Shown here in pieces: positions 36,852 through 57,041 of a stretch of 64,000 nucleotides of DNA; the first letter of the stretch is position 1; each line of letters opens with the position of its first letter. The stretch is from positions 64,001-128,000 of the forward strand of contig JAKFBU010000030.1 of assembly GCA_036676985.1 (NCBI GenBank). Direction: 5' to 3'. This stretch comes from Candidatus Sericytochromatia bacterium. Lineage in GTDB: Bacteria; Cyanobacteriota; Sericytochromatia; S15B-MN24; UBA4093. A program made the translations under genes and the position numbers. The notes below the pieces were generated by a model. That model saw nothing but the letters and a program-made list of their open reading frames with translations, had not been told where the DNA came from and searched no databases.

Positions 36852-37826
36852 ATGCCAAGCATCCGATACTGGCAATTGATCATCTCTCTTATCGGCCTGG
36901 GGGCCCTCCTGACGGCATGTCCGCACCAGGGCCCGGCCCTCGACGAGGTGCCGCCTATCTCGGGACGGGTCGACTTCCCCGGCGAGCCGGCCCTCTCCCC
37001 CTATACGACCCAGGCGACGATCTCGGACGTGGCGAACGCCGCCACGGTGGTCCTCATCGACACCACCGCCAACCTCACCCGGGGCTCCACCATCACGGAC
37101 GCGAGCGGCGCCTTCTCGCTCAAGTTCAGCAACAGCTTCAAGCCCACCGCGAGCGCCTCCTACTACCTCGAGGCCGTGCGGGGACTGGGCGGCAACGCAG
37201 CGGGCAAGAACGCGGCACGCGTCCGGACCATCCTGCGCTACGATGGCGGCTGGCAGTCCATCACCTCGGCCCAGACGGGCAACCCCATCCACATCAACCT
37301 CGGCACCACCGCCATCGCCGCCATCACGAACCTCAAGGGGCCGAGCCGCGTGGACGTGGACGACGTGATCGGAGCGCTCACCGTGTCCCCGGAGGCCTTC
37401 ACGCCCGTCACGGGGATCTCGGGAGCGGAGTTCACCACCGTCAAGGGCATCACCGCCTCCCTCTTGAGCGCGGACTCCGATCCCATGGCGGGCATCGTCT
37501 ACGACGCAGGCCCCCCGGAGACCTTCACCCTGCGCAACACCACGAGCTCGCTCACCATGGACCAGGCGACCGCGAGCATCGGCGAGGCCGTCACCCTGCG
37601 GGGCCTCTCCTTCAACCCCGCAGCTCCGCTCGGCACCACCAACGTCGTCCTGTTCAACAACACGGCGACCGGCTCGGTGACGGGCATCGCGGCCGATCGC
37701 CAATCCATCACGGTGGTCGTGCCGAACGACGCCGTGTCGGGACCGGTCACCGTCCGCACGGGCGGCAAGATCTACGGCCTTCCTTCCTTCACCGTTTGGA
37801 GCACGGTCAATGTCGACCTCTTCTAA
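36852..37826 (+). CDS. Lipoprotein: 'YxTQA' N-domain plus IPT/TIG domain
   Basis: Lipobox LTAC; YTTQA; GEAVTLRGLSF..ITVVVPNDAVSGPVTV. Confidence 0.8.
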   Translation: MPSIRYWQLIISLIGLGALLTACPHQGPALDEVPPISGRVDFPGEPALSPYTTQATISDVANAATVVLIDTTANLTRGSTITDASGAFSLKFSNSFKPTASASYYLEAVRGLGGNAAGKNAARVRTILRYDGGWQSITSAQTGNPIHINLGTTAIAAITNLKGPSRVDVDDVIGALTVSPEAFTPVTGISGAEFTTVKGITASLLSADSDPMAGIVYDAGPPETFTLRNTTSSLTMDQATASIGEAVTLRGLSFNPAAPLGTTNVVLFNNTATGSVTGIAADRQSITVVVPNDAVSGPVTVRTGGKIYGLPSFTVWSTVNVDLF

Positions 37827-38613
37827 GCGCCTGAGCCGCCTGGCACTCCTCGGCCTCGCGGGGCTCCTCATGGCCTGCAGCGACGACACGTTGATCACGG
37901 GTGACAACCGCGTGCCCAAGGCGACCCCCACTCCGAGCGCGGTACCGTCCACGGCGCCCAGCGCCTCCCCGTCGCCTACTCCTACCCCCAAGCCCACGCC
38001 CGTGCCCACCCTCGTCTCCCTGATGATCGTGCCCTCCGAGATCAGCCTCACGAGCAATCCGAGCGCTCCGCCGGCCAGCCGCGGCACCAACCTGGCGGCG
38101 ATCGCCGTCCTGAGCAACGACCAGCAGGTCTCGGCCGACGTCGTCTGGTCCGTCTTGCCCGCGGGGCTCGTCACGGTCAACGGCGCGGGCTACGTGAGCG
38201 CCATCGCGAACGTCCCAGGCGGCACGGCCACGGTGACGGCGAGCTCGGGCTCGATCAAGGCCACGGCCTCGGTGACGGTGACGGGCACGCCCCTGACCGT
38301 CAGCTCCATTTCCCTGTCGAGCAACGGGCTGACCCTCTACACGCCCGCCGCGGACGGCCTCAACACCGCAGGCCTGCCCACCAGCGCCCGGCTCATCGCA
38401 GAGGTCACCATGAGCGACGGCAGCACCACGAGCGCCGTCACCTGGTCGAGCGGCGACGAGGCGGTGGCCACCGTGAACGCCGCAGGGTTGGTGACGAGCG
38501 TCGGGGCGGGACAGACCAACCTCACGGCCAAGGCCGCCCTGGATCCGTCCCAGACCGTGAGCTGCCCGGTGACGGTCAAGGCCCAGGGGCTCGTCGACGT
38601 GACGGTGGAGTGA
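37810..38613 (+). CDS. Lipoprotein with two Ig-like (Big_2) domains
   Basis: Lipobox LMAC; VTWSSGDEAVATVNAAGLVTSVGAG; C-terminal GLVDVTVE. Confidence 0.82.
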   Translation: MSTSSKRLSRLALLGLAGLLMACSDDTLITGDNRVPKATPTPSAVPSTAPSASPSPTPTPKPTPVPTLVSLMIVPSEISLTSNPSAPPASRGTNLAAIAVLSNDQQVSADVVWSVLPAGLVTVNGAGYVSAIANVPGGTATVTASSGSIKATASVTVTGTPLTVSSISLSSNGLTLYTPAADGLNTAGLPTSARLIAEVTMSDGSTTSAVTWSSGDEAVATVNAAGLVTSVGAGQTNLTAKAALDPSQTVSCPVTVKAQGLVDVTVE

Positions 38614-38617
38614 GGCC

Positions 38618-39556
38618 ATGCGCAAGACGTTGATCGGAGTGGGACTCGTGCTGAGCGTCGCCGGCTGCCAGGCTCCGCTCCTGCCCTCCGTGTCCCCCGT
38701 CCACCAGCCCACGACGTCCGCGGGCGCCCCCGACGAGCAGGGCCGGGTCGCCGTGACGATCCAGTGGCCATACCGGACGCAAGTCATCCCCACGAGCACC
38801 GAAAAGCTGCGTCTGACGCTCGCCGGGCCCACGTCGCAAACGATCGACATCCTCCGTCCGGACGGCGGGGGGCCGACCAGCACGGCCTCCTTGACCCTCG
38901 ACGTGGGGACGGGCTACACCCTCGCGATCGACGCCCTGGCCAGGCAAAATCAGGGCGAGCTCGACCCGACGCTGCTCGTGGCCTCGGGCCAGAGCGATCC
39001 CTTCGAGGTCGCGGCCAACAAGGTCACGAGCGTGCGCGTGGCGCTCTCGCCGAGCTTCATGCCGGCCATTCTCGACTTCTCGCCGACCAACGGCGGTCCG
39101 GGGACGTACGTGACCGTCCAGGGCTTGAACTTCGGCAGGTCCCGCGACCTCACGCTCGGCTTCCGGTTCGGCGGCACCGTCGCCAGCATCGTGCACGCGA
39201 CCGACGACGGCACGGCCTCGGTGCTCGTCCCCGACCTGGCCACCTCGAGCCTGCTCTTCCCGGTGACGGACGGCGTGACGGGGCTGCCCAGCGGCTCGTT
39301 CACCGTCCTCTCCCAGCTCGGCATCCAGCCGGCCGCGAGCACCGTCGCCTCGGGCAGCACGTTCCTGTTCACCGCCCAGGCGACCTCGACCGAGGGCAGC
39401 GAGTTCGCGAGCCCGAGCGTCCAGTGGTATCTCAGCACGAGCTCGATCGGCGCCATCGACGCGAGCGGCACCTTCACGGCTTCCGGATCGGGTACCGGCG
39501 AGGTGGTGATCTACTCGGGTCGCCTCCTGGCCACGGCCTCGATCACGGTCCCTTAA
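38618..39556 (+). CDS. Lipoprotein: 'RTQ' N-domain plus IPT/TIG and Ig-like domains
   Basis: Lipobox VAGC; WPYRTQVIP; FSPTNGGPGTYVTVQGLNFG; IDASGTFTA. Confidence 0.8.
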   Translation: MRKTLIGVGLVLSVAGCQAPLLPSVSPVHQPTTSAGAPDEQGRVAVTIQWPYRTQVIPTSTEKLRLTLAGPTSQTIDILRPDGGGPTSTASLTLDVGTGYTLAIDALARQNQGELDPTLLVASGQSDPFEVAANKVTSVRVALSPSFMPAILDFSPTNGGPGTYVTVQGLNFGRSRDLTLGFRFGGTVASIVHATDDGTASVLVPDLATSSLLFPVTDGVTGLPSGSFTVLSQLGIQPAASTVASGSTFLFTAQATSTEGSEFASPSVQWYLSTSSIGAIDASGTFTASGSGTGEVVIYSGRLLATASITVP

Positions 39557-39567
39557 GGGAGGCGCCC

Positions 39568-41463
39568 ATGCGACGGTTCGTAACAGGTTTGCTCACCCTC
39601 CTGGCGCTCTGTGGCTGCCAGACGCTCGTTCCAGCACGTCCAGCGGGCCCGCAGGGCGTCGAGTCGCAGGCGGTCCAGTCGGCGAGCCTCAACATCCGCC
39701 TCTCCCTGCCGCGCGAGACCCAGGCCTTGCCTACCAACACCCAGTCGATCAAGGTCCTCCTGCGCAAGACCGGGCTCACCGATCGCACGGCCACGGTCAA
39801 CACCGGCACCGCCACCACCGTCACCTTCTCAGCCCTGCCACCCGGTAGCGGCTACACCCTCTACGCCGCGAGCTACTCCGGCCTGAACGCCACGGGCACC
39901 ATGCTGAGCTGGGGTACCCTGCCCCTGACTTTGGCCTCGGGCCTCAACACGGCCTCCTTCGGGCTCTCGGTGGCCGTGCGCTCAGGCACGGGCGTCGACG
40001 ACCTGGTGGCGGGCCCCGCGGGAAACCAGGCCCAGCAGTTCGGCACCCAGCGGCTCTTCACCTCCATGAACGACTTCAACGCGCCGGGGGCCGCCGCGAG
40101 CGGCATCGAGGTCTTCTTTCCGAACCAGAACGCCTTCCTGGCCAAGTTCGGGTCCCTCGGGGCAGCAAACGGGCAGTTCTCCAACAGCATCCAGAACCTC
40201 GCCATCGACAGCCGCGACCGGATCTGGGTGACGGATCTCGGCCACAGCCGCGTCTGCCAGTTCGACGCCAACGGTAACTTCCTGCGCGGCATCGGCGGAG
40301 GCGTCACCTGGACCTCCGCCCAGGCGCCGCCCGCGACGGGCTCCAACGCCACCAACCTGGGCCTCAACGCCCCCTTCGGCGTGGCGGTGGACGTCAACGA
40401 CAACCTCTACGTGGCCGACAGCGCCAACCGCCGGGTCATGAAGTACGACCCGAACGGCAACTTCCTGATGGGCATCGGCAACGGCACGGTATGGTACGCG
40501 GGCACGACCGCCCCGGCACCCGTGAGCGGCAACGCCAACGGCTACTTCGCCAACAGCTACGGCATCGACGTGGGGCCGGACGGCGTCATCTACGTCTGCG
40601 ACAGCAACAACCATCGGGTCCAGGTCTTCAGTCCGTCGGGAGCCTTCATTCGCGGCATGGGCAACGGCACGACCTGGACGGGGGCGGCGCCTGCACCCAT
40701 CGCGAGCGACAGCGCCCGGTACTTCACGACCTCGTGGCACCCCAAGCTCGACGCCAACGGCTTGCTCTACGTTACGGACAACACGAGCCGTGTCCAGGTC
40801 TTCGACGGCAACGGCAACTACCTCCGGACCTTCTCGGCCGTCGCTCCGGACAAGCCGACCGCCGCCGCGGGCTTCCTGGGCATCAGCCCCACGGGCCTGC
40901 TGTACGTCGTCAACCACGGCAGCCAGCCCTACTTCACCCAGATCTTCACGCCGCAGGGCGTCGTGCTCTCCCGTTACGGCACCTATGGCACGGGCGACGG
41001 GCAGGTCAACCGCCCCGAGGCCATCGAGTGGGCCTCCGACGGCACCTTCTACCAGACGGACCGCAGCAACATGCGGGTGCTGCGCTATCGCGGCATCCAG
41101 CCGAACGCCGTCACCGGCGGCCTCCGGCTCACGGGCCACCGCCAGCCGGATACGCCCGCGTTCTCGAACTCGGGCACCTATGACACCCCCGGCATCGACG
41201 CCGGGGCCAGCACCACGTGGGGCTCGCTCTTCTGGAACGTCGCCTCGCAGCCGACCAACACGGGCGTGGCGACGGCCGTCGCCACCTCGAGCAACGGCCT
41301 CGACTGGGGCTCCTGGACCGCGGTGGCGGGCTCGTCGGCGGTGGGCAACAACTCGGCGAACCTGACGGGCATCAGCGGTCGCTTCCTCAAGGTCCGCGTG
41401 ACGCTCTTGACCACCGACACCTCGGTCAGCCCCGAGGTGCAGGACGTGGGGGTGACCTACTGA
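39568..41463 (+). CDS. Lipoprotein with NHL-repeat beta-propeller and split C-terminal jelly-roll-like domain
   Basis: GGGAGG SD; lipobox LCGC; LPRETQALP; NHL repeats (P.GVAVD..NLYVADSANRRV.KYD). Confidence 0.85.
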   Translation: MRRFVTGLLTLLALCGCQTLVPARPAGPQGVESQAVQSASLNIRLSLPRETQALPTNTQSIKVLLRKTGLTDRTATVNTGTATTVTFSALPPGSGYTLYAASYSGLNATGTMLSWGTLPLTLASGLNTASFGLSVAVRSGTGVDDLVAGPAGNQAQQFGTQRLFTSMNDFNAPGAAASGIEVFFPNQNAFLAKFGSLGAANGQFSNSIQNLAIDSRDRIWVTDLGHSRVCQFDANGNFLRGIGGGVTWTSAQAPPATGSNATNLGLNAPFGVAVDVNDNLYVADSANRRVMKYDPNGNFLMGIGNGTVWYAGTTAPAPVSGNANGYFANSYGIDVGPDGVIYVCDSNNHRVQVFSPSGAFIRGMGNGTTWTGAAPAPIASDSARYFTTSWHPKLDANGLLYVTDNTSRVQVFDGNGNYLRTFSAVAPDKPTAAAGFLGISPTGLLYVVNHGSQPYFTQIFTPQGVVLSRYGTYGTGDGQVNRPEAIEWASDGTFYQTDRSNMRVLRYRGIQPNAVTGGLRLTGHRQPDTPAFSNSGTYDTPGIDAGASTTWGSLFWNVASQPTNTGVATAVATSSNGLDWGSWTAVAGSSAVGNNSANLTGISGRFLKVRVTLLTTDTSVSPEVQDVGVTY

Positions 41464-44400
41464 TGAGCCCAATCAATCGCCCGAAGGGCATACCAAATAG
41501 GCTCTCCGGCGCGGAACGCGCGATGCGCCGCCTTCATCGCCATCTCACAGGTGCCCTCATTGCCGCCCTCGCCTTGACGGGTTGCCACCCGAGCATGCGC
41601 CCGCCGGCCCTCGTCGCGCCCGTCCAGGCGCCCACCGCGAGCCACGAGGCCACGGCGCTCTGGGGTCAGGTCGTCGCGGGCTACTCGACCCAGGCTACCG
41701 CCGCCCAGCTCGTCAGCTACGCGACGGTCACGCTGCTCGACGGCAGCAACCAGGTCGTCGCCACGGGCCTCACGGACGGGTCGGGGGCGTTCAGCCTCAA
41801 CCCCTTCGTGAGCTGGACGCCCACCACCAACGCCGTCTACGTCCTGGACGCCCTCAAGACCTTCGACAAGACCAACGACCGTGCGGGGCTGCGCTTCCGG
41901 ACGCTCGTGAGCTGGGACGGGAGCCAGTGGCGATCGATCTCCGGCACCACCGCCGCGGCCGCTGGCGGTGCGGGCATCCGGCTCAGCGCCCAGACCACGG
42001 CGATCGCCTCCATCTCGAGCCTGCGCGCCATCGCGGCAAGCTCCCTCCTGGGCACCCTCGATCCCGTCACCGGGGCCTTCACCGAGACGGGCGGCATCAC
42101 GTCGGCCGTGCTCTCCACGGTCACGGGCCTGGTCAACCAGGCCCTGGGCGCGAACCTGGATCCGGTGGGCCACCTCGCCTACTCGTCCGCCGATGGCAGC
42201 TATCGCCTCACGCTGAACGGCGGCTCGGGCCGCGTGCTCTTCGACATGGAAGACGCGATGGGCAACTCCCTGAACAACCGTACGGTGGTGAAGGGGCATG
42301 ACGGCGGAGCCGCCTACGGCTTCGGCAGCACCGCGGGGCTCTACCTGTCGCAGTTCGGCGCGAGCGGCTCAATCGCAAGCACGCTGAACCACCCCATGGG
42401 CCTCGACGTCGACCGCTTCGGCAACGTCTACGTGGCCGAGCACGACAACCACCGCATCTCGAAGTTCGCGCCCGACGGCCGTGTCCTCTGGACGCTCGGC
42501 GCCAGCGGCTCGTTGGCGGGAAAGTTCCAGTACCCCACCGACGTGAGCGTCGATCAGAACGGCAACCTGCTCGTCACCGACTACCTGAACCACCGGGTAC
42601 AGAAGTTCGACGCCTTCGGGAACCTGCTCTTCGGCATCGGGGGCGGCGCCCGCTGGACGGGCACGGCGCCCGCCTGGAGCACCGTCATCAACTCCGGGCA
42701 CAACTTCTTCTACAACCCGCACTACGCCAAGTTCGACTCGGCCGGCAGCTTCTGGGTCGGCGACACGCTGCACCACCGCATGCTCAAGTACGATCCCAAC
42801 GGCAACTTCGTGATGGGTATCGGGGCGGGCACCAAGTGGACCACGACCTACCAGCCCAACAGCCTCCGCGGCAACACCGCGGCCAACTACACGGGAAGCT
42901 TCCTGTGGGGCAACCAAGCCCTGGTCCGCGAGACCGACGCCATCGCGACCGACGGCAACTACTTCTACGTCCACGATGGTCATGCCACCAACGGGGGCTT
43001 CTACAAGATCGATCTCTCGGGCGGCCAGGTGGCGGGCCCGGGACCGACGCCCTACCTCGGCAGCGTCCGGGGCTCTCTGGCCGCCGTGAACAAGCGCCTG
43101 TACTACCGGGGCTCGGGCACCGGAGCGAACAAGATCATCGTCCTGGATCCCGCCACCATGGGCGAGATCGGCTACATGCTCCAGAACGGCACGGGAACCA
43201 TCGCGAGCGCGAACAACGACGCGCACCCCTGGGGCACGACCTTCGGCTGGATGAACTACGGCCTCACCACTGACGGCCGCTACCTCTACATCCCCGAGGA
43301 CACGGGCCCCGGCACCACGTTCCTGATCCGGGTCTACGATCCGTTCAACAACATGGCCTGGGTCCGCGACATCTCCTGTCCGGTGCCCGCGGGCACCATG
43401 AACTTCGATCACCACGGCTACTACACCAACGGCGAGTACTTCGTCGTCTGCGGCTACATCGAGCCCACCCTGTCCCTGCCGCGCAACTACCGGTTCCGCC
43501 TCTCGGACGGGGTGTACCTGGGCACCGAGGACGGCTACGATCCCTTCACCGCCAACTTGGTGGGCGCCTGCTACGACTACGTCCGTCAGCGCGTCCTGCG
43601 CCAGGAGCACTCCAGCGGTCGGTTCGCGGCTTACTCCAACGAGTGGAGCGGCAATGCCAACGGCTGGTTCAACACGCTCACCGGCTTCGCCGTCTCCCCC
43701 AACGGGGACCTCTACGTGTGCGATCGCGCCAACCACCGGATCCAGCGGTTCGACCCGAACGGCAACTACGTCTCGCAGTGGGGCACGCAGGGGACGGGCA
43801 GCGGCCAGTTCGATCAGCCGGAGGACGCCGTCATCGACAACGCGGGCAACGTGTGGGTCAGCGACGGCTGGGGAGCCAACCACCGGGTCCAGAAGTTCGA
43901 TCGAGCGGGAACCTACATGAGGCAGCTCGGGGCCCTGGGCACCGGCAACGGCCAGTTCGACCGCCCGCGCGGGCTCGCCTTCGCGCCGGACGGCACGCTG
44001 GTGGTCGCGGACTGGATGAACAACCGCGTGCAGCGCTTCCTGCCCACCACGTCCCAGCTGACCTCCCCGGCGTACGGGAACTTCAACGCCGCCCGCGGGA
44101 CCCTTTCCTTCTGGTTCAAGCCCAAGTGGAACGGCTCGGAGACCGCCACGCGAGTCTTCTTCCGGGAGACCGGCGGGAATGCCAACAACATCGGCTTCCA
44201 CAAGATCGGAACCCAGTTCTACCTCTACATGATCGACAACCTGGCAGACAACTCGCGCGCCGTGCGCGTCGGCATGGGCCCCTCGGACGTGGCGCAGATC
44301 AAGGCCGGCGAGTGGCATCATATCGCCGCCACCTGGGACACGGCGGCCGGTCAGTACCGCTTCTTCTTCAACGGCCGCGAGTACCGGAGCTATTCCACCA

Positions 44401-44567
44401 ACCTGGGGCTCGTGCTGAACATGGGACCGAGCGGAACGTTCTACGTCGGCAGCGAGCCGGACGGCACCTCGATGGTGGACTCGGCCCTCGACGACTTCCG
44501 GATCCACGACTACCCCAAGAGCGCCGAGGAGATCCTCCGGGACTACCGCGGCCTGGTGCAGGAGTAG
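41463..44567 (+). CDS. Large lipoprotein: 'YxTQA' N-domain, NHL repeats, inserted propeller, LamG-like domain
   Basis: Lipobox LTGC (start 41463 or 41523); YSTQA; NHL repeats; GTLSFWFKP..WHHIAATWD..LDDFRI. Confidence 0.85.
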   Translation: MSPINRPKGIPNRLSGAERAMRRLHRHLTGALIAALALTGCHPSMRPPALVAPVQAPTASHEATALWGQVVAGYSTQATAAQLVSYATVTLLDGSNQVVATGLTDGSGAFSLNPFVSWTPTTNAVYVLDALKTFDKTNDRAGLRFRTLVSWDGSQWRSISGTTAAAAGGAGIRLSAQTTAIASISSLRAIAASSLLGTLDPVTGAFTETGGITSAVLSTVTGLVNQALGANLDPVGHLAYSSADGSYRLTLNGGSGRVLFDMEDAMGNSLNNRTVVKGHDGGAAYGFGSTAGLYLSQFGASGSIASTLNHPMGLDVDRFGNVYVAEHDNHRISKFAPDGRVLWTLGASGSLAGKFQYPTDVSVDQNGNLLVTDYLNHRVQKFDAFGNLLFGIGGGARWTGTAPAWSTVINSGHNFFYNPHYAKFDSAGSFWVGDTLHHRMLKYDPNGNFVMGIGAGTKWTTTYQPNSLRGNTAANYTGSFLWGNQALVRETDAIATDGNYFYVHDGHATNGGFYKIDLSGGQVAGPGPTPYLGSVRGSLAAVNKRLYYRGSGTGANKIIVLDPATMGEIGYMLQNGTGTIASANNDAHPWGTTFGWMNYGLTTDGRYLYIPEDTGPGTTFLIRVYDPFNNMAWVRDISCPVPAGTMNFDHHGYYTNGEYFVVCGYIEPTLSLPRNYRFRLSDGVYLGTEDGYDPFTANLVGACYDYVRQRVLRQEHSSGRFAAYSNEWSGNANGWFNTLTGFAVSPNGDLYVCDRANHRIQRFDPNGNYVSQWGTQGTGSGQFDQPEDAVIDNAGNVWVSDGWGANHRVQKFDRAGTYMRQLGALGTGNGQFDRPRGLAFAPDGTLVVADWMNNRVQRFLPTTSQLTSPAYGNFNAARGTLSFWFKPKWNGSETATRVFFRETGGNANNIGFHKIGTQFYLYMIDNLADNSRAVRVGMGPSDVAQIKAGEWHHIAATWDTAAGQYRFFFNGREYRSYSTNLGLVLNMGPSGTFYVGSEPDGTSMVDSALDDFRIHDYPKSAEEILRDYRGLVQE

Positions 44568-44571
44568 GCCC

Positions 44572-46866
44572 ATGGAACGCTTGAGACTACTGCTCGCCTT
44601 TTGCGCGGCGCTCCTGCTCATCGCCTGCAAGCCTCCGGCCCAGGTGACGCCCCCGCCGGTCGTCGTGTCGGCGTCCGAGTTGCAAGGCCAGCTGATATTG
44701 CCCGAGGGCTACCAGACGCAGGCCAATGCCTCGCAGGTTCGCGCGAACGCCACCGTCACGCTGATCGATCCCGCGACCTTCCAGGCCAAGGGCACGGGCA
44801 TCACCGCGAGCGACGGGACCTTCACCGTCCGGGCGCTCCCGACCTTCACCCCGGCCGTCGGGGGACTCTACCTCCTGGAGTCGAACAAGACCCTCGGCGG
44901 AGCGGGCAACGCCGCGTTCCGCCTGCGCACGCTGGTGCAGTTCACGACATCGGGCTGGACCTCCGTCTCGGGAGCGGCCGTCCAGCTCTCCACGGCCACC
45001 ACGGCGGTCGCCCTGCTATGGGACCATCATGGGCTTGCAGCGGCGAACGTCCTCTCCAAGGTGACCTACGAGGCCGTCACGCGCACGCATCGCTTCAGTG
45101 CCCTCACGACCACCCTGACCGAGGAGAAGCTGCGCGAGGTGGAGGCCCTCGTCAACGAGGCGCTCCTGCTCAACGTCGACCCGATTCACGTCATGCGCCC
45201 CGGATCCGACGGGAAATTCGGCCTTTCCTTGAGCGATCGCCCCCGCAACCAGCTCGTCAACGGCAGCTTCGAGGAGGGCGGCACGGGCCTGGCTTACTGG
45301 AAGCTCAACAACCCCGGAATTGCCTCCTGGTCGGCCGAGACGGGCGTGGTCTTCGAGGGCAAGCGCTCCATCAAGCTGACGGTCAACGCGGCGGGGGACA
45401 CCTGGTTCGGCCAGGGCTGGAACGACTCGACCGACACCTTCGGGATCCAGCTCGCCACGGGGACGGCCTACACCTTCTCGGTCTATGCCCGGGGGGCCGT
45501 GGGGGGCGAGAAGCTCGCCCTCTGCCTGAACTACCAGAAGCCCTTCTTCGAGGTCACGAGCCCGACCTTCATCCTCTCCACCAGCTGGCAGCGCTACTCC
45601 TGGACCCTGGTTGCCGCCAACACCACCGACCGCGCCTTCTTCATGCTCCGCAACGGCAGCGGCATCGGCCAGGCGACCTTCCCGTCCAGCGTCTACGTGG
45701 ATGCCGTGCAGCTCGAGACGGGCGGGGCCGCGACCGACTACGGCGGGTCGGGCAGCCTCTTGCAGGAGGGCTTCGCCAACTCCCTCGAGAGCACGGGCGT
45801 CACGTTCGCCCAGGGGCGCTCGGGCCGAGCGGTGATGGTCGACAACTGGCTCAACGTCATTCCCTCCAACTCGAGCTTCGAGACCGACTCGAACGCCGAC
45901 GGCATCCCGGACGGGATGACGCTCATCAGCTCCGGCGCCACCTATTCGTTGGACCCCGAGGCCCTGTTCGACACCCGGTCCCTCAAGATCGAGAAGAGCA
46001 CCGCCACCGGCACGTTCGTCGGGTACCCCCTGACGCATACCTTCAAGCCAGGCAAGACCTATACCTTCTCGGTGTGGGTCAAGGGGCAGAACGTGCAGGG
46101 CCCCCAGAACGCGTCCGACTTCGCCCTCTACGTCGATGCCCTGCCCGTCACGGGGGGCTACGAAGTTTTCAGTACCGCGATGCCCGTCGGCACGTTCGAC
46201 TGGACGCGCGTCACCGCCACGCACACCTTCAGCAAGGAGTGCGGTGCGGCGAACGTCTACCCCATCTTCCGCAACAAGACGGGCACGGTGTGGTTCGACG
46301 GCCTGCAGGTCGAGGAGAATGGCCAGGCCTCTCCCTACGCGGGTAACTTCGGCGCCGATCGCCTCTCCTTCGACGCCGCTCACTACAGCCCCTATCAGGG
46401 CACGATCTCGTTCTGGTACAAGCCCACCTACAACTGGGCGAGCGACAAGGACCTGGGCGATATCTTCGGATTGGTGAACGCCTCGGGCAACGAGCTGCTG
46501 CTCGTCAGGAAGTCCAGCAACCAGGACGGAACCAACCGGCTGACGCTCGGGAGCTGGGATGGCACGACCTCTCAAGGCAATGAGTGGCGGCCGAGCGGCA
46601 CGCCCTGGGTGGCGGGCACCTGGCACCACCTGGCCCTCACCTGGGGGAATCGCGGCGTGGAGTTCTTCCTGGACGGCGAACAGGTGAGTCAGATCCCGTA
46701 CTTTGGGCCCATCAACGCGGGCAGCCCGTTCAGCCGCCTCTGTTTTGCCGGTAACAACCTCGGCGCGAACTACCTCGGCGGCACCAACGGCCTCCTGGAC
46801 GGCCTGAAGGTCTGGGACCTCCAGAAGTCGCCCGAGGCCGTGCGGCGCGAGTACCTGGGGTTCTAG
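44572..46866 (+). CDS. Lipoprotein: 'YxTQA' N-domain, two CBM4/9-like modules, LamG-like domain
   Basis: Lipobox LIAC; YQTQA; NGSFE..YTFSVYAR..YVDAVQLE; NSSFE..WFDGLQVE; GTISFWYKP..WHHLALTW. Confidence 0.85.
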   Translation: MERLRLLLAFCAALLLIACKPPAQVTPPPVVVSASELQGQLILPEGYQTQANASQVRANATVTLIDPATFQAKGTGITASDGTFTVRALPTFTPAVGGLYLLESNKTLGGAGNAAFRLRTLVQFTTSGWTSVSGAAVQLSTATTAVALLWDHHGLAAANVLSKVTYEAVTRTHRFSALTTTLTEEKLREVEALVNEALLLNVDPIHVMRPGSDGKFGLSLSDRPRNQLVNGSFEEGGTGLAYWKLNNPGIASWSAETGVVFEGKRSIKLTVNAAGDTWFGQGWNDSTDTFGIQLATGTAYTFSVYARGAVGGEKLALCLNYQKPFFEVTSPTFILSTSWQRYSWTLVAANTTDRAFFMLRNGSGIGQATFPSSVYVDAVQLETGGAATDYGGSGSLLQEGFANSLESTGVTFAQGRSGRAVMVDNWLNVIPSNSSFETDSNADGIPDGMTLISSGATYSLDPEALFDTRSLKIEKSTATGTFVGYPLTHTFKPGKTYTFSVWVKGQNVQGPQNASDFALYVDALPVTGGYEVFSTAMPVGTFDWTRVTATHTFSKECGAANVYPIFRNKTGTVWFDGLQVEENGQASPYAGNFGADRLSFDAAHYSPYQGTISFWYKPTYNWASDKDLGDIFGLVNASGNELLLVRKSSNQDGTNRLTLGSWDGTTSQGNEWRPSGTPWVAGTWHHLALTWGNRGVEFFLDGEQVSQIPYFGPINAGSPFSRLCFAGNNLGANYLGGTNGLLDGLKVWDLQKSPEAVRREYLGF

Positions 46867-50355: not shown

Positions 50356-51157
50356 CCGCTTTTCCCGCTCGCTCATCGTCGTCGGCAAGGAGCTGCGCGA
50401 CCTGACGCGCAACCCGGGGCTCATGGCCACCATGCTCGTGCCGGCCCTCCTGTTGACGGCGCTGGCGGTGCTCGCCCTCTATGCGGCGGGGCTCGCGGCC
50501 GCGGGTGCCCAGGGCGCTCCGCCCAAGGGCCTGGTGCTGCCTGCCCTGCTCGAGGGGGCGACCCGGGCCGAGGCGGCCCAGTTCGTCGCCATCTCCCCGT
50601 TCTTCCTCATCTGGCTGGTGTTTCCGGTCTCGGTGCCGAGCGCGCTCGCGGCCTACTCCATCGTGGGCGAGAAGGAGGAAGGAACGCTCGAGCCGCTCTT
50701 GGCCACGCCCATCGGGACGGGCGAGCTGCTCTTGGGCAAGGCGATCGCGGCCGGGTTGCCGGGGCTCGTGCTCACGTGGGCGTCCTGGCTCGTCACGCTC
50801 CTGGCGGGCCTCGGGCTCGGCGCGGGCCGGGTCATGCAGGCGACGCTCATGAGCCCGGCGTGGCTGGTCGGAATGGCGGGGCTCGCCCCGGCCCTGACGT
50901 TCCTGACGGTGATGGTGCTCGTCAACGTCAGCTCGCGGGTCAACGACGTGCGTTCGGCCACGCAGATCGGCGGTCTCCTGGTGTTGCCCATCATCGGGCT
51001 GTTCGTCTCGCAGATCAGCCGGGGGCTGCTCCTGGGCGTGCCCACGGTCCTCTGGGCCACGGGCGGGGTGCTCCTTGCGGGCCTCGTGGCCATGGCCCTG
51101 GCCGTGCGCCTGTTCCAGCGCGAGACCATCCTGGTGCGCTGGAAGCAGAGCCGCTAG
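50348..51157 (+). CDS. ABC-2 type transporter permease
   Basis: KELRDL.RN, SIVGEKEEGTLEPLLATP..LLLGK; six TM helices. Confidence 0.9.
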   Translation: MSSRFSRSLIVVGKELRDLTRNPGLMATMLVPALLLTALAVLALYAAGLAAAGAQGAPPKGLVLPALLEGATRAEAAQFVAISPFFLIWLVFPVSVPSALAAYSIVGEKEEGTLEPLLATPIGTGELLLGKAIAAGLPGLVLTWASWLVTLLAGLGLGAGRVMQATLMSPAWLVGMAGLAPALTFLTVMVLVNVSSRVNDVRSATQIGGLLVLPIIGLFVSQISRGLLLGVPTVLWATGGVLLAGLVAMALAVRLFQRETILVRWKQSR

Positions 51158-51837
51158 AGTCCCTTCAACACGTAGCCCACGCCCCGCACGGTGTGGATCA
51201 GCTTGGGCCGCTCGGCCTGCTCGATCTTGTTGCGCAGGTGGCGCACGTAGACCTCGAGGATGTTGTCCTCGCCCTCGAAGTCGTAGCCCCAGACCGCCTC
51301 GATGATCCGCTCGCGGGGCATCACCTTGTTGGGATTCTGGATCAGGCACTTGAGCAGCTCGTACTCCTTGGGGGTCAAGGAGATCTCCGCGTCGCCCCGC
51401 CGCACCTGGCGGCTCTCCACGTCCAGGCTCAGATCTCCGATCGCATGCACCGTCTTGGGCTGGGGCCGCCGCATGCGCAGCTGCGCGTGCACGCGTGCGA
51501 CCAGCTCGTCCAGGTCGAAGGGCTTGGGCAGGTAGTCGCTGGCGCCGCTGTTGAGGCCCTCGATGCGGTCCGGGATCTCCCCGAAGGCCGTCAGCATCAG
51601 AATGGGCACGTCCGACGTCTGACGGATGCGCCGGCAGACCTCGAGGCCGTCCATGCCGGGCAGGGAGCGATCGAGGATGACGAGGTCGGGAGCGTCCTGG
51701 CGCGCCGCCGACAGCCCGGCCTGACCGTCGGTGGCGACGCGGACCTCGAAGCCCTCCGCGCCAAGCCGCACGGCCACGAGCTCGGCGACCTCGGGGGCGT
51801 CTTCGACGACGATGATTCGGGCAGACTGCGCGGGCAT
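51154..51837 (-). CDS. OmpR/PhoB-family response regulator (orphan)
   Basis: DLVILD..LPGMDG, DYLPKPF, LEVYVRHLRNKI, HTVRGVGY. Confidence 0.95.
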   Translation of the reverse strand: MPAQSARIIVVEDAPEVAELVAVRLGAEGFEVRVATDGQAGLSAARQDAPDLVILDRSLPGMDGLEVCRRIRQTSDVPILMLTAFGEIPDRIEGLNSGASDYLPKPFDLDELVARVHAQLRMRRPQPKTVHAIGDLSLDVESRQVRRGDAEISLTPKEYELLKCLIQNPNKVMPRERIIEAVWGYDFEGEDNILEVYVRHLRNKIEQAERPKLIHTVRGVGYVLKGL

Positions 51838-52009
51838 GCAACGCCTTTCTAGACGGGCCACTCATGGAGTACATACGCGACCGGCTCGCCGTCTAAACGT
51901 CCCTAGCCGAGCGACCTTCAGGGTTCTTTCAGCTTCATTGGATACGTTTAATGTGTCGAACGCAGCCACTCGTGCCGAGGCGCTGCTCAGTGGCCAAAGG
52001 AGTATCGCC

Positions 52010-52531
52010 ATGCAGAAGACCCTGACCCTCGCACTCGTCGCCCTCGCCCTTGCCGGCTGCGGCTCCACGTCCACCCTCTCCGGCCCGACCTACGGCAGCG
52101 CCCGCCTCCTGACGGAGGCCACCGACGCCCGCAGCGTCCAGTACCTCGCGAGCGACATCCAGGCCGCGCGCGTCACGGTGCTCGGCTCGGTCAACGGCGG
52201 GGCCTTCACCGAGATCACGCGTGCCGACTTCACGGGCGCAGCCCTCGCGAGCAAGCTCAGCAACAACACCTTCAGCTTCACGGTGGACAACCTCAAGGTG
52301 AGCGACACCGTCACCAGCTACAGCTACCAGGCCAAGGTCGAGACCTACCTCGAGACGGCCATGACCACCCTGCTCGGCAACAGCACCTCCAGCGGCTTCA
52401 CCGTCACCGCGAGCCAGACGCCGACCACCATCACCATGCCGACGCTCAAGCTGCTCGCGAGCCCCATCGGCAGCGGCAGCGCCGGCGTCACCATCATCGA
52501 CACCCCGACTCCTGCCGTGGTCATCCGGTAG
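52010..52531 (+). CDS. Lipoprotein, 'RxVQY' family
   Basis: AAGGAG SD; lipobox LAGC; RSVQYLASDI; C-terminal TPTPAVVIR. Confidence 0.75.
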   Translation: MQKTLTLALVALALAGCGSTSTLSGPTYGSARLLTEATDARSVQYLASDIQAARVTVLGSVNGGAFTEITRADFTGAALASKLSNNTFSFTVDNLKVSDTVTSYSYQAKVETYLETAMTTLLGNSTSSGFTVTASQTPTTITMPTLKLLASPIGSGSAGVTIIDTPTPAVVIR

Positions 52532-52551
52532 GACCCTTCGGGATCGCGGCC

Positions 52552-53274
52552 ATGGGTCTCGGACGGCAGCTGGCGGCAACGGCCCTCTTGGGGCTCGTCG
52601 CGTCCGGCTGCGCCGCCCGGGACGTCACAGGAACGGGCAGCGCCCTTGTCGTCTTGCCCGCCGGCCGCCGGGTCCAGTACGTCTCCTCGGACGTACGATC
52701 CCTGAAGGTCACCATCACGCGCCAGGCCGACGGTCAGACGTACGTGAAGTCCTATCCCGGCACGGCCCTCGCTCCGATTGCCGCAGGCAGCCGGTTCACC
52801 TTCTCGGCCGACAACCTGACGCCCGGCACCTACGTGGCGCGACTGGATGCCTTCGGCGACGCGGGCCAGACCATGTCGCTCGGCAGCGTGACCTCGGCCC
52901 CGTTCGGGGTCGTTCCGCAGGTCGTGACCCCGGTGACCCTGCCGAGCCTGGTCCTGCCCCCCACGCCCGTCGGCGACTGGCGCCTGACCCTCACGGTCGC
53001 CCTTTCGGGCGGCTACACGATCACCGACTACGCCACCCGGCTCGAGAGCCCGGCGGGCACCGTGGCGACGGGTCCTGCGGGCACCTCGCTCGCCGACACC
53101 AGTTCCTTCACGTGGGGCAACGCGCCCGCTGTTCCCGCAGGCCTCAGCACGACCTCCGTCACGGTCAACGCCATGCGCAAGAACGGCCAGCGTGCCACCA
53201 AGACCTTTACCGCCACCGCCAGCATCGTCGCCGGAAGCACCGCCACGTCGTCGCTCGCGATCGCCTTTCCCTAG
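52552..53274 (+). CDS. Lipoprotein, 'RxVQY' family paralog
   Basis: Lipobox ASGC; RRVQYVSSDV; FTFSADNL versus FSFTVDNL in upstream paralog. Confidence 0.75.
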   Translation: MGLGRQLAATALLGLVASGCAARDVTGTGSALVVLPAGRRVQYVSSDVRSLKVTITRQADGQTYVKSYPGTALAPIAAGSRFTFSADNLTPGTYVARLDAFGDAGQTMSLGSVTSAPFGVVPQVVTPVTLPSLVLPPTPVGDWRLTLTVALSGGYTITDYATRLESPAGTVATGPAGTSLADTSSFTWGNAPAVPAGLSTTSVTVNAMRKNGQRATKTFTATASIVAGSTATSSLAIAFP

Positions 53275-53283
53275 GAGGAAGCC

Positions 53284-53391
53284 ATGCCGTACCTGCTGCT
53301 AGCCGCCGTGACGGCCTGCCTTCTTGCCGGCTGCCCCGCGACGGTCAATTCGCCTCAGCCCCAGCCGGATCGCGCCGTCTCGATCCGCTAG
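53284..53391 (+). CDS. Mini-lipoprotein (35 aa), not in ORF track
   Basis: AGGAGG SD; MPYLLLAAVTACLLAGCPATVNSPQPQPDRAVSIR; lipobox LAGC. Confidence 0.65.
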   Translation: MPYLLLAAVTACLLAGCPATVNSPQPQPDRAVSIR

Positions 53392-53430
53392 CCCTTCCAG
53401 GACGCCCGATGGGCGTGCTAAAGTGAGCGC

Positions 53431-54819
53431 ATGAGTTCGCCGTACGTACGTCCTATCGATCTCGACCCCCTGCAACTCCGCGCCTTCGCGGCCTCTCAGC
53501 CCCACGGCTTCATCCTCGACAGCGGCCATGCCCCCGACGGCTGGCAGTTCGTCGGCTTCCGTCCGCGCTGGACCCTGACCTGCCGCGGGGAGCTGCGGAT
53601 CCTCGAGCGCGACGGCGTCATCGAGACCTCGCGCGGTCATGCCCTCGACGCCCTCCGCCAGGTCATGGACGCATGGCGCCTCGCTCCCGGGGGTGACACT
53701 CCGCCCTTCTGGGGCGGCGGGGTCGGCTTCCTCAGCTACGACCTCGGCTGGCAGCTCGAGCGGCTACCGCGGCGGACCGAGGACGACCTGCACACCCCCG
53801 AGCTCTCCTGGGCCTTCTACGACGCGGTGGTCGCCATTCCGGCCTCCGGAACGCCCCTCCTGTGCGTCACGCCCGCGCCGGGCGAGCCGGAGGACCGGCT
53901 CGAGGCCAAGCGAGCGGAATGGGAGCGGGAGCTGCGATCGCTCCCCCCTTACGACTCCGTCCCGCCCGGGCGGGCCGCCGGCGCTCCCAGGGCGACTTTC
54001 ACCCGTGACGCCTACCTGCGGGCGGTCGGCGCCCTCAAGGAGCGCATCGCTGCGGGCGACCTGTACCAGGCCAACCTCTCCCAGCGCTTCGCCATTCCCT
54101 TCGAAGGCGACGCCCACGCCTACTTCGAGGAGCTGCGGGCACGCAACCCCGCCCCCTTCGGGGCCTTCCTCAACTGGCCCGAGTTCACGGTCCTGAGCAG
54201 CTCTCCCGAGCGCTTCCTGCGCCTGCGCCGGGGCCGGGTGGAGACGGCTCCCATCAAGGGGACCCGACCCCGCGGCCGCACGCCCGCCGAGGATCGGGAG
54301 CTCGCGGACGCCCTCGCCACGAGCGAGAAGGATCGCGCGGAGCACCTGATGATCGTGGACCTGGAGCGCAACGACCTGGGCCGCGTGTGCCGGATCGGCT
54401 CCGTGCACGTGCCCGAGCGCTTCGTACTCGAGGCCCATCCGACCGTCTGGCACCTGGTGTCCACGGTGGCCGGGGAGCTCGGCGCCGACCGGGACACCGT
54501 CGACCTCTTGCGGGCGACCTTTCCGGGCGGCTCCATCACGGGCGCGCCGAAGCTCAAGGCCATGGAGATCCTCGAGGGCCTCGAGCCCACCCGCCGTGGC
54601 CTGTACACGGGCTCGATCGGGTACATGGGGAGAGACGGCGACCTGGACTTGAGCATCGTCATCCGGACGGCGATCCTGAAGGATGGGACGGCCTATCTGC
54701 AGGTGGGCGGCGGGATCGTGGCGGACTCGGATCCGGCCTCCGAATACCAGGAGACGCTCGACAAGGCCAAGGCCTTCTTTCGCACGTTGGGAGTGGAGAC
54801 CGCATGCGAGTTGTCCTGA
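53431..54819 (+). CDS. pabB: Aminodeoxychorismate synthase component I
   Basis: YQANLSQRF, SSPERFL, PIKGTRPR, KDRAEHLMIVDLERNDLG, FPGGSITGAPK. Confidence 0.9.
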   Translation: MSSPYVRPIDLDPLQLRAFAASQPHGFILDSGHAPDGWQFVGFRPRWTLTCRGELRILERDGVIETSRGHALDALRQVMDAWRLAPGGDTPPFWGGGVGFLSYDLGWQLERLPRRTEDDLHTPELSWAFYDAVVAIPASGTPLLCVTPAPGEPEDRLEAKRAEWERELRSLPPYDSVPPGRAAGAPRATFTRDAYLRAVGALKERIAAGDLYQANLSQRFAIPFEGDAHAYFEELRARNPAPFGAFLNWPEFTVLSSSPERFLRLRRGRVETAPIKGTRPRGRTPAEDRELADALATSEKDRAEHLMIVDLERNDLGRVCRIGSVHVPERFVLEAHPTVWHLVSTVAGELGADRDTVDLLRATFPGGSITGAPKLKAMEILEGLEPTRRGLYTGSIGYMGRDGDLDLSIVIRTAILKDGTAYLQVGGGIVADSDPASEYQETLDKAKAFFRTLGVETACELS

Positions 54820-55777: not shown

Positions 55778-57001
55778 TTAGATCGAGAGGGCCTTGAGGG
55801 CGTTGATGCGACCGAAGCCGAAGCTCTTGTCGAAGCCCTGGGCGCCGAGGTCATCGGCCGACTGCTCGAGCTTGGCGCGGACGCCAGCCAGATCCAGCGA
55901 GGGGTACTTGTCGCGGATCAGCGCGGCCAGACCAGCGGCGGCCGGGGTGGCCATCGAGGTGCCCGAGAGGACGCCGTACTCGGTCTTGCCGATGGGGTTG
56001 GCCAGCATCGGAAGGGTCGAGAGGATCTTCGAACCGGGGGCCGAGATCGAGATGTGCTTGCCCATGTTCGAGAAGGACGACTTGAGGTCGGCGCTGTCGG
56101 TCGAACCGACGGCGATCACGCCGGGGACGCCAGCGGGGTAGCTGGTGGTCTCGCGACCGTCGTTGCCCATCGCGGCGACGACGACCGAGCCCTTGCTCAT
56201 CGCGTACTTGACGGCATCCTCGAGGGCCTTCGAGGTCGACGGACCGCCGAGGCTCATCGAGATGACCTGCGCGCCCTGGTCAGCGGCGTAGATGATGCCG
56301 TTGGCCACGCCCTCGTACGAGCCGCTGCCCGACTTCGAGAGCACCTTGACCGCGAGGATCGTCACGTTCGGGGCGATACCGGCGATGCCGATGCCGTTGT
56401 TGGCCGAACCCGCCGCGATACCGGCGCAGTGGGTGCCGTGACCCTGATCGTCCATCGCATCGTCGTCGTTGTTGACGAAGTCCTTGCCCTTGAGGGTGCG
56501 GCCCTTCAGGTCGGGGTGGCTGTGGTCCACGCCGGTGTCGACGATGGCGAGCACGGTCTTGGGCGAGCCGGTGGTGATGTCCCAGGCGGCGCGGGCCTGA
56601 ACCTTGTCCAGCGTGTACTGGTCCTTGGCCATCGGGTCGTTCACATCGCCCTCGACGCGGAAGTCCGACATGCGAGCGACGTAGTTGGGCTCAGCGTAGG
56701 CGACCTTGCCGGAGGCCTGCAGCTTGGCGATCGTGTCAGCGACGTTGCCGCGGACCTTGATGAGCTGCATGCCGGTGCGGCTGTTGCTGCGGACGGTCGA
56801 ACCGACCGATTCGACGACATCCAGCGCCTCGACACCCGGCTTGAACTTCACCAGGATCTGCTGGGCGACGGCTTCACCCTTCACGGCCTGGGCGGCATCG
56901 TTGCGGATGGCACCAGGGACGTTGCCACAGCCGACCATCGACACGGTGCTGACGGCGGCGATCGAGGTGGCCAGGGCGAGGCGGAGGCGCGCTTGCATCA
57001 T
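55778..57001 (-). CDS. S8 subtilisin/thermitase-like serine protease, lipoprotein
   Basis: Lipobox MVGC; propeptide YAEPNY; VDTGVD, HGTHCAG, GTSMATP. Confidence 0.93.
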   Translation of the reverse strand: MMQARLRLALATSIAAVSTVSMVGCGNVPGAIRNDAAQAVKGEAVAQQILVKFKPGVEALDVVESVGSTVRSNSRTGMQLIKVRGNVADTIAKLQASGKVAYAEPNYVARMSDFRVEGDVNDPMAKDQYTLDKVQARAAWDITTGSPKTVLAIVDTGVDHSHPDLKGRTLKGKDFVNNDDDAMDDQGHGTHCAGIAAGSANNGIGIAGIAPNVTILAVKVLSKSGSGSYEGVANGIIYAADQGAQVISMSLGGPSTSKALEDAVKYAMSKGSVVVAAMGNDGRETTSYPAGVPGVIAVGSTDSADLKSSFSNMGKHISISAPGSKILSTLPMLANPIGKTEYGVLSGTSMATPAAAGLAALIRDKYPSLDLAGVRAKLEQSADDLGAQGFDKSFGFGRINALKALSI

Positions 57002-57041
57002 CGTCTTCTCCTTCACTGAGCGGAAGCGGAATAATCAAACC

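Follow-up and report, generated by a model that had tools for sequence, protein, structure and literature searches.

The window analysed here, 64,000 nucleotides (nt) of the forward strand of a Candidatus Sericytochromatia genome (assembly GCA_036676985.1, contig JAKFBU010000030.1, positions 64,001 to 128,000), carries at 52010-53391 a compact cassette of three open reading frames (ORFs). The first two, g1 and g2, code for paralogous lipoproteins. The third, here called the mini ORF, codes for a predicted lipoprotein of 35 amino acids (aa) in which the lipidation site is followed by a proline-rich spacer and a short terminal strand that resembles the C-terminus of g1. In our judgement the most interesting part of the cassette is this apparently conserved gene for a lipopeptide which seems to copy the terminal strand of its neighbour. 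From the comparisons presented below the mini ORF is very probably a real, conserved gene. The Sericytochromatia are non-photosynthetic relatives of the cyanobacteria. The host is an uncultured soil and groundwater bacterium with a genome of 67% G+C which is 100% complete.

The three ORFs are all on the + strand. g1 (52010-52531) codes for 173 aa with the lipobox LAGC and the tail ...TPTPAVVIR. g2 (52552-53274) codes for 240 aa with the lipobox ASGC and the C-terminus ...AIAFP. The mini ORF (53284-53391) has the lipobox LAGC and the C-terminus ...DRAVSIR. Its product comprises a 16-residue signal peptide, the lipobox cysteine Cys17 and a mature peptide of 19 residues; residues 24-35 (53353-53388, +) form the Pro-rich spacer and the terminal strand ...AVSIR. 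The gap between g1 and g2 is 20 nt, that between g2 and the mini ORF 9 nt. The Shine-Dalgarno sequence AGGAGG of the mini ORF (53273-53278, +) overlaps the stop codon of g2 and is spaced 5 nt from the ATG. Because of these short gaps and the overlapping Shine-Dalgarno site, the best explanation of the arrangement is a single operon of putatively exported lipoproteins, limited to a few genera of one order. By the pattern [LVI][ASTG][GA]C behind a hydrophobic signal peptide a lipobox is found in g1, g2 and the mini ORF alike, and the lipobox Cys is invariant in 13 of 13 g2 and six of six mini sequences. LPAM_1 matches g1 with an E-value of 0.018, below the cut-off. We infer from these motifs that g1, g2 and the mini peptide are lipidated. 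A previous sequence-only reading of this DNA had proposed the three lipobox-bearing ORFs and the AGGAGG site in front of the third; all are present where it placed them.

Cassettes were gathered from the host genome and its relatives. The DNA following g2 was read in 12 of them; one, L028, ends 74 nt past g2 and cannot be judged, which leaves 11 evaluable cassettes. An ORF of 32-36 codons is located directly after g2 in six of the 11, from two genera and two locus types. The carriers are the window, L002 from the same genus, L024 and L025 from another genus, and a divergent cassette of four genes which occurs on two contigs (L015, L031) of a same-genus metagenome-assembled genome (MAG). The window, L002, L024 and L025 are orthologous loci with the gene order ABC ATPase, ABC permease, response regulator, g1, g2, mini ORF, pabB and S8 subtilase, and every one of these four possesses the mini ORF. 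Across the four loci pabB is 66% identical, g1 52-54% and g2 36-40%; the flanking proteins overall range from 36 to 77%. In all six carriers the start codon is positioned behind a purine-rich GGAG-type site in the same place. The alignment of the six mini sequences (A3) uniformly displays the lipobox Cys, a spacer of the form Q-(x0-2)-P-x-P and a short terminal strand; Q25, P26 and P28 are invariant. Five of the six mini proteins exist as called proteins in databases, and the exact 35 aa of the window are found in NCBI and Logan sources. A scan of the lipobox ORFs of the host genome produced no such mini gene elsewhere in it. The syntenic conservation which the sequence-only reading had proposed as a check is therefore present, in six of 11 cassettes and at all four orthologous loci. 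It had also conceded that the small ORF might be a truncated pseudogene of a longer lipoprotein. The comparison speaks against this: the length is 32-36 aa at six of six loci, and pseudogene debris is absent around the mini ORF since just 9 nt precede and 39 nt follow it.

The codon comparisons point in the same direction. Between L015 and L031 the mini ORF has 26 identical codons out of 36, eight synonymous and two non-synonymous changes. Between the window and L002 there are 10, 6 and 17 differences at codon positions 1, 2 and 3, respectively. These patterns fit a constrained coding sequence and, at the level of codons, show purifying selection on the mini ORF. Among contigs of four DNA runs one covers the region from g2 to pabB with approximately 93% identity; the only indel among the matches listed is a 3-base in-frame deletion in g2.

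How similar are the tails of g1 and of the mini protein? The C-termini of g1-type proteins have a conserved short strand, T/S-P-x-P and a terminal strand which is mostly ...VVIR. In the window this tail comprises g1 residues 160-173 (52487-52528, +) with short strand, T-P-x-P and the terminal strand ...VVIR. An ungapped matrix of nine columns was prepared from 13 distinct g1-family tails and applied to the nine C-terminal residues of every stop-to-stop frame of at least 25 codons in the genome (79,107 frames). Both g1 copies come out on top, at ranks 1 and 2, and the mini ORF is 70th. As measured by this matrix the likeness is beyond chance; that it is no more than modest is due to a 2-residue insertion in the mini tail relative to g1. 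In this modest form the claim that the C-terminus of the third ORF mimics the end of the first gene is upheld. By eye, the g1 and mini tails of the main locus type share P-A/x-P followed by V-V/S-I, and in the divergent L015 pair an acidic residue occupies position -3 in g1 and mini protein alike. Thus, the mini tail appears to follow the local g1 tail, as a co-variation of the two would have it, with the reservation that this is a comparison by eye of just two independent locus types. A separate observation concerns a pair of adjacent paralogous lipoproteins outside the window (C28 pair; L064:1007-2095, contig C28:48506-49597) of 188 and 173 aa, 61% identical to each other, which belong to no Pfam family and have no similarity to g1. 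Their C-termini consist of a Pro-rich spacer and a strand ...T-R-S/T-L-V-I-N/D and rank 7 and 11 of 79,107 with the g1-tail matrix. Possibly they are a second family that uses a tail of this kind.

The paralogy of g1 and g2 is evident from BLASTP (E 5e-13, 30% identity, 165 columns) and agrees with the sequence-only reading. The alignment extends past the g1 sandwich into the start of the second domain of g2, so the g1 tail is the counterpart of the first strands of a domain which is otherwise absent from g1. Both proteins contain the motif R-x-V-Q-Y to which that reading had drawn attention, R41-S-V-Q-Y45 in g1 (52130-52144, +) and R39-R-V-Q-Y43 in g2 (52666-52680, +). In the family alignments the Arg is conserved in 19 of 20 g1-type (A1) and 13 of 13 g2-type sequences; the Gln is invariant in both sets. 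The sole g1-type sequence without this Arg is the third paralogue of locus L026.

AlphaFold2 (AF2) models of g1 and g2 were built from our own alignments. The conserved Arg is located in the loop after strand 1 in both. g1 is predicted as one β-sandwich of about residues 28-150 (strands 28-148) with an overall predicted local distance difference test (pLDDT) of 73.1 and strands mostly at 72-93. The monomer model does not place the final 19 residues, and residues 155-170 have a pLDDT of <50. The g2 model (pLDDT 77.6) consists of a g1-like N-terminal sandwich and a complete second β-sandwich, residues 140-239, with seven strands at pLDDT 81-94, the last of which is the C-terminus. Residues 1-32 and 37-43, i.e., first strand and motif loop, are below 50. 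Because the confident second domain runs to the C-terminus, g2 is predicted to lack a free tail, and a g1-like tail is missing in 13 of 13 g2-type sequences. The extra domain and the different end ascribed to g2 from sequence are thus confirmed. As a side observation, the g2-type proteins of genus g3 (genome G003; L027:1506-2336 and L027:4443-5210) have C-terminal extensions of 13-20 residues past the usual last strand; these cassettes are without mini ORF.

As modelled, both proteins are sandwiches of the immunoglobulin (Ig)/FN3/transthyretin-like kind, with no more specific fold. VIA-align relates g1 to BDI_3522 (3r4r; Z 7.9, rmsd 3.2, 108 aligned), BT2657 (4qdg; Z 7.8) and Mfa2 (5nfi; Z 7.4), and g2 to 4qdg (Z 7.9) and 5nfi (Z 7.3), so that N-terminal domains of type V pilins are among the top matches. 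A Z of 8.1 was obtained for the ExsB pilotin. According to the warning of the tool Z values of this size are common. A Foldseek search against PDB returned no match at E <= 0.001.

What might such a lipopeptide do? By analogy with type V pili and TapA we consider it a serious possibility, if somewhat short of an even chance, that the mini peptide is a membrane-tethered strand which docks into g1 or g2. The mature, lipidated product of the mini gene would be 16-20 residues long and consist of a Pro-rich spacer and, at its end, a β-strand which copies the last strand of g1. By strand complementation it would insert into the g1 (or g2) sandwich where g1's own tail binds in trans. Once docked the peptide would either hold the last subunit at the membrane or close off an oligomer of g1. 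In such an assembly the stalk would be formed by g1 and the tip by g2, with the mini peptide as an anchor cut down to lipid, spacer and strand; the unreduced form of this anchor would be represented by the Arg-less third paralogue of L026. The oligomerisation of g1 is presumed here, and it is speculation that subunits are primed by a cut at the conserved Arg which follows the first strand. The data would agree equally well with a fibre and with a 1:1:1 lipoprotein complex held together by strand augmentation. A type V-like strand-exchange fibre outside the Bacteroidia, built from a 13-kDa single-domain g1, a two-domain tip g2 and a lipopeptide anchor of 16-20 residues, with the third paralogue of L026 as unreduced anchor, is the most far-reaching version and in our view an unlikely one. 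The scheme of shaft, tip and anchor put forward by the sequence-only reading is plausible and supported in part. The architecture fits it: the g1 tail is left unplaced by AF2, g2 has an extra domain and no tail, and the mini ORF is conserved. Docking is the part in which it is weakly backed.

Docking was modelled with g1 residues 42-153 and the whole 35-aa mini protein. The score is 0.37 (runs 0.42, 0.37 and 0.35) against 0.02 for the best of three controls, for a receptor trimmed on the assumption of the model. Between runs at least 96% of the contacts agree; the pLDDT of the partner is 51-52. The mark set for this score is reached by 58 of 80 solved complexes and by 2 of 110 mismatched pairs; passes scoring <= 0.60 comprise just seven of the 80 solved complexes and both passing mismatches. 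A prediction of peptide binding had been suggested as a check; it lends weak support to a docking of the mini peptide onto truncated g1.

A considerable number of points weigh against a tethered donor strand, and several originate from the prediction itself. According to the tool a pass at such a score is wrong more often than right unless the pairing was likely beforehand. The receptor was trimmed of the first strand of g1 and of its own tail. This presupposes the strand-exchange model and opens a groove that many strands might fill. The score comes without a contact list, and the docking part may be the signal peptide instead of the tail. Further, the alignments used were our own. The likeness of the tails is modest, as is evident from rank 70 and the insertion, and the tracking of tails was seen by eye in two locus types. 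The mini signal peptides of the window and of genome G001 have no basic residue in the n-region. None of 33 family members (20 g1-type, 13 g2-type) matches a Pfam family of type V pilins at E up to 10; the fold matches to type V pilins extend over the N-terminal domain only and score on a par with FN3 domains (Z 6.5-7.7). The Arg of g1 and g2 may be structural. In the lipoproteins of an upstream operon which have a similar N-terminal pattern only the Gln recurs. Orthologues of the neighbouring S8 subtilase, with 59-64% identity, exist in genera without the cassette. In addition, the mini gene is absent in five of 11 evaluable cassettes and therefore is not required by the family as a whole. 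The second cassette of the host genome (C41; L011:314-2019), with a g1 57% identical to that of the window, lacks the mini ORF and has a predicted multi-pass membrane protein of 137 aa after g2 instead. In G003 (both cassettes) and G022 nothing mini-like is found after g2.

In L026 (L026:6178-8163; genome G007, contig C31) the place of the mini ORF is taken by a full-length gene. The three paralogues of this cassette have 190, 255 and 189 aa; the third is a g1-like lipoprotein with a tail of its own, ...TTTID, and a Trp replacing the otherwise conserved Arg before V-Q-Y. Genome G007 carries a mini ORF at its pabB locus besides. Since the mini gene is missing in five of 11 cassettes and L026 has a full-length third paralogue in its position, the gene likely arose by reduction of a longer lipoprotein, as far as gene content can tell, yet it is not a recent pseudogene. 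From the same two facts one might argue that the mini ORF is nothing but the remnant of a third g1-like paralogue, left with signal peptide and last strand after an internal deletion and having little or no function. We regard this as rather improbable. The length of 32-36 aa, start codon, Shine-Dalgarno site, lipobox and tail are intact in two genera and two locus types, eight synonymous stand against two non-synonymous codon changes between two copies, and the 9 nt before and 39 nt after the ORF hold no pseudogene debris. Moreover, an origin by deletion is compatible with a present function. A chance open frame is far less probable still, indeed very unlikely. Genomes with a G+C content as high as 67% are rich in spurious ORFs, and several overlap the mini stretch in other frames; but frame, start, lipobox and tail would hardly be kept in six loci, with a Shine-Dalgarno site in each of them and an excess of third-position and synonymous changes, if the 35 codons were not a gene.

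The other two explanations accept the gene and differ in what the tail is taken to mean. The shared tail could be a recognition or sorting tag for surface export or for a processing protease, the mini protein being a tag-only decoy, competitor or regulator. The location at the extreme C-terminus behind a flexible Pro-rich spacer, unplaced in the g1 model, would suit a tag. So would the similar spacer and strand in the unrelated C28 pair (ranks 7 and 11) and the abundance of S8 subtilases in the order (8-36 matches per genome at E <= 1e-40, 18 in the host genome). Among 713 lipobox ORFs with a third-position G+C fraction (GC3) of at least 0.75, however, only five carry a g1-like tail, namely the two g1 copies, the mini ORF and the C28 pair; because of this it is not a general tag, and a general lipoprotein sorting tag was rejected as the leading explanation. 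In addition, g2 is exported from the same operon without the tail in 13 of 13 sequences, and no candidate tag reader co-occurs with the cassette, the neighbouring S8 enzyme included. A tag of this sort appears unlikely to us, although it is the strongest of the competing explanations. Alternatively, the mini ORF may code for an independent small envelope lipoprotein with an unrelated role, its tail being alike by coincidence or by a common β-strand pattern. Short lipoproteins are common in other bacteria. A matrix rank of 70 among 79,107 is not extreme, and the NCBIfam matches of the mini protein are sub-threshold and driven by the lipobox (TrbK, E 0.0055). On the other hand, wherever it is present the mini ORF is directly behind g2 and translationally close to it, the genome scan found no such gene elsewhere, and its tail, compared by eye, keeps in step with that of the neighbouring g1 in each of the two locus types. 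We rate an independent lipoprotein about as improbable as a mere remnant. The tethered donor strand remains the reading which we prefer.

The family is small. A profile search among 1,835,955,588 representatives yielded 38 clusters at E <= 0.001, a word search of a set of 5.8 billion proteins 10 matches. Carriers are nine of 27 genomes of the order (four of 15 genera) and nine of 401 sampled genomes of the phylum. A further related locus, based on a narrower alignment, is a metagenome contig which ends at g1 (L062). Neither Pfam nor NCBIfam has a family for g1, g2 or the mini protein; the TrbK match just mentioned has 16.7 bits at a cut-off of 23. The profile search of PDB sequences had no match and no pilin. 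In the ESM Atlas exclusively unnamed clusters appear at 0.90-0.91, and the nearest Pfam-bearing clusters at 0.81. By these searches g1 and g2 constitute an undescribed lipoprotein family which is confined to one order. A literature search, supplements excluded, identified no paper on a donor strand from a lipopeptide or small ORF or on pili in Sericytochromatia. The MAGs which bear homologues are labelled in NCBI as Stenomitos sp., Pantanalinema sp. or 'bacterium'. The host genome, complete as it is, contains no Photo_RC (PsbA/PsbD) gene; the labels Stenomitos and Pantanalinema therefore look wrong, as these would denote a photosynthetic genus.

The cassette is flanked by an OmpR-type response regulator (51154-51861, -) which is divergent from it and matches Response_reg and Trans_reg_C, and by pabB, which starts at 53431 downstream of the mini ORF. 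A promoter and terminator scan of 51700-53600 found none. Between the mini stop codon and the pabB start a perfect 6-bp hairpin is located at 53402-53416 (ACGCCC, loop GAT, GGGCGT). It is not a classical terminator because a T-run is absent. The sequence after it, GCTAAAGTGAGC, is nearly identical in the same-genus locus L002; L024 and L025 have a different GC-rich hairpin in the corresponding place between mini ORF and pabB. Further downstream, at 55778-57016 on the - strand, the S8 subtilase is encoded, a lipoprotein (Pfam E 1.8e-66) with a fervidolysin-like pro-domain. It was considered and rejected as a dedicated partner since it has orthologues in cassette-free genera and is not beside the cassette in genus g3; the S8 fragment which adjoins g2 in G022 is only 38% identical. 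The same-genus orthologue (G001:C151) reads through one in-frame TAG.

Upstream in the window, at 36852-46866, there is an operon of large surface lipoproteins with the domains Big_2, TIG, NHL, Laminin_G_3 and CBM_4_9. Four members of the operon carry, some 25-45 residues past their lipobox Cys, a strand and then Y/E-x-T-Q. The parallel between R-x-V-Q-Y and an x-T-Q motif of this operon, drawn in the sequence-only reading, thus stands as a motif in these four lipoproteins. For homology to g1 there is no more than a hint: the g1 family compared by hhalign with the ORF at 38618 gave E 0.0016 with a probability of 16% over 122 columns, and another comparison E 0.1. The lipoproteins of 36852-46866 and g1 may share a lineage-specific N-terminal lipoprotein domain.

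On the cautious side, these data add a conserved gene of less than 40 codons under purifying selection and an undescribed lipoprotein family to a poorly known lineage. Should the strand-exchange interpretation be true, then among anchors or terminators of strand-complemented assemblies the mini protein would be the smallest known, reduced to a lipid site, a spacer and one β-strand. Strand exchange based on lipoproteins would extend beyond the Bacteroidia, and the three genes would constitute a simple system for studying a donor strand alone as a tether or cap. A natural peptide of 16-20 residues is small enough for synthesis and direct testing.

How does the cassette compare with known systems? 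In chaperone-usher pili a dedicated variant subunit, e.g., FimI (PMC10673952), ends the donor-strand polymer, and the part proposed for the mini peptide is alike. As a difference, these pili work with extensions at the N-terminus, a chaperone in the periplasm and an usher pore; chaperone or usher genes do not adjoin the cassette, and the genome was not searched for them. Closer is TapA from Bacillus subtilis. In the excerpted account it is an accessory protein from the same operon as TasA, and its terminal segment serves as donor strand for TasA; it is located at the membrane, is less abundant than TasA and acts as nucleator or chaperone in a Gram-positive biofilm matrix (Roske et al. 2023, PMC10151520). 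The mini protein would likewise be an accessory protein from the same operon bearing a copy of the subunit's donor strand. At the level of sequence this trait, a donor-mimicking tail encoded beside the subunit, is present in six of six loci, without homology to TapA. As far as that account goes TapA differs in that it donates its N-terminus, has a complete Ig-like domain and is not a lipoprotein (PMC10151520). The strand of the mini protein is C-terminal, and the protein would consist of lipid, spacer and strand only.

The most extensive parallel is with the type V pili (Fim, Mfa) of Porphyromonas gingivalis. In the excerpts of the description which we cite, the subunits are lipoproteins and the pili are unique to Bacteroidia (PMC13655056). 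Stalk and anchor pilins possess C-terminal donor strands which replace the first strand of the acceptor, and tip pilins are without them. The loop which follows the lipid-linked 'anchor strand' at the N-terminus holds a conserved Arg. This cleavage site is missing in the anchor pilin, which stays lipidated, gives only a donor strand and ends growth (PMC13655056). The differences from the cassette are substantial. By sequence the family is unrelated to type V pilins (0 of 33 members), and the fold matches are on a level with those to generic FN3. The pilins have two transthyretin-like domains (NTD, CTD); g1 has one of about 125 residues, and g2 has two. The putative anchor would be a lipopeptide of 16-20 residues, not a folded pilin. 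No gingipain-type protease turned up, and no search aimed at such peptidases was made. The host lineage is not Bacteroidia, and for the cassette a filament is hypothetical. The distribution of elements, by contrast, resembles the one described for type V pili in these excerpts: g1 has a tail and the Arg, g2 the Arg and no tail, and the mini protein a lipid site and a tail only (PMC13655056). The full-length third paralogue of L026, in which the Arg is missing, resembles the type V anchor pilin as characterized there (PMC13655056).

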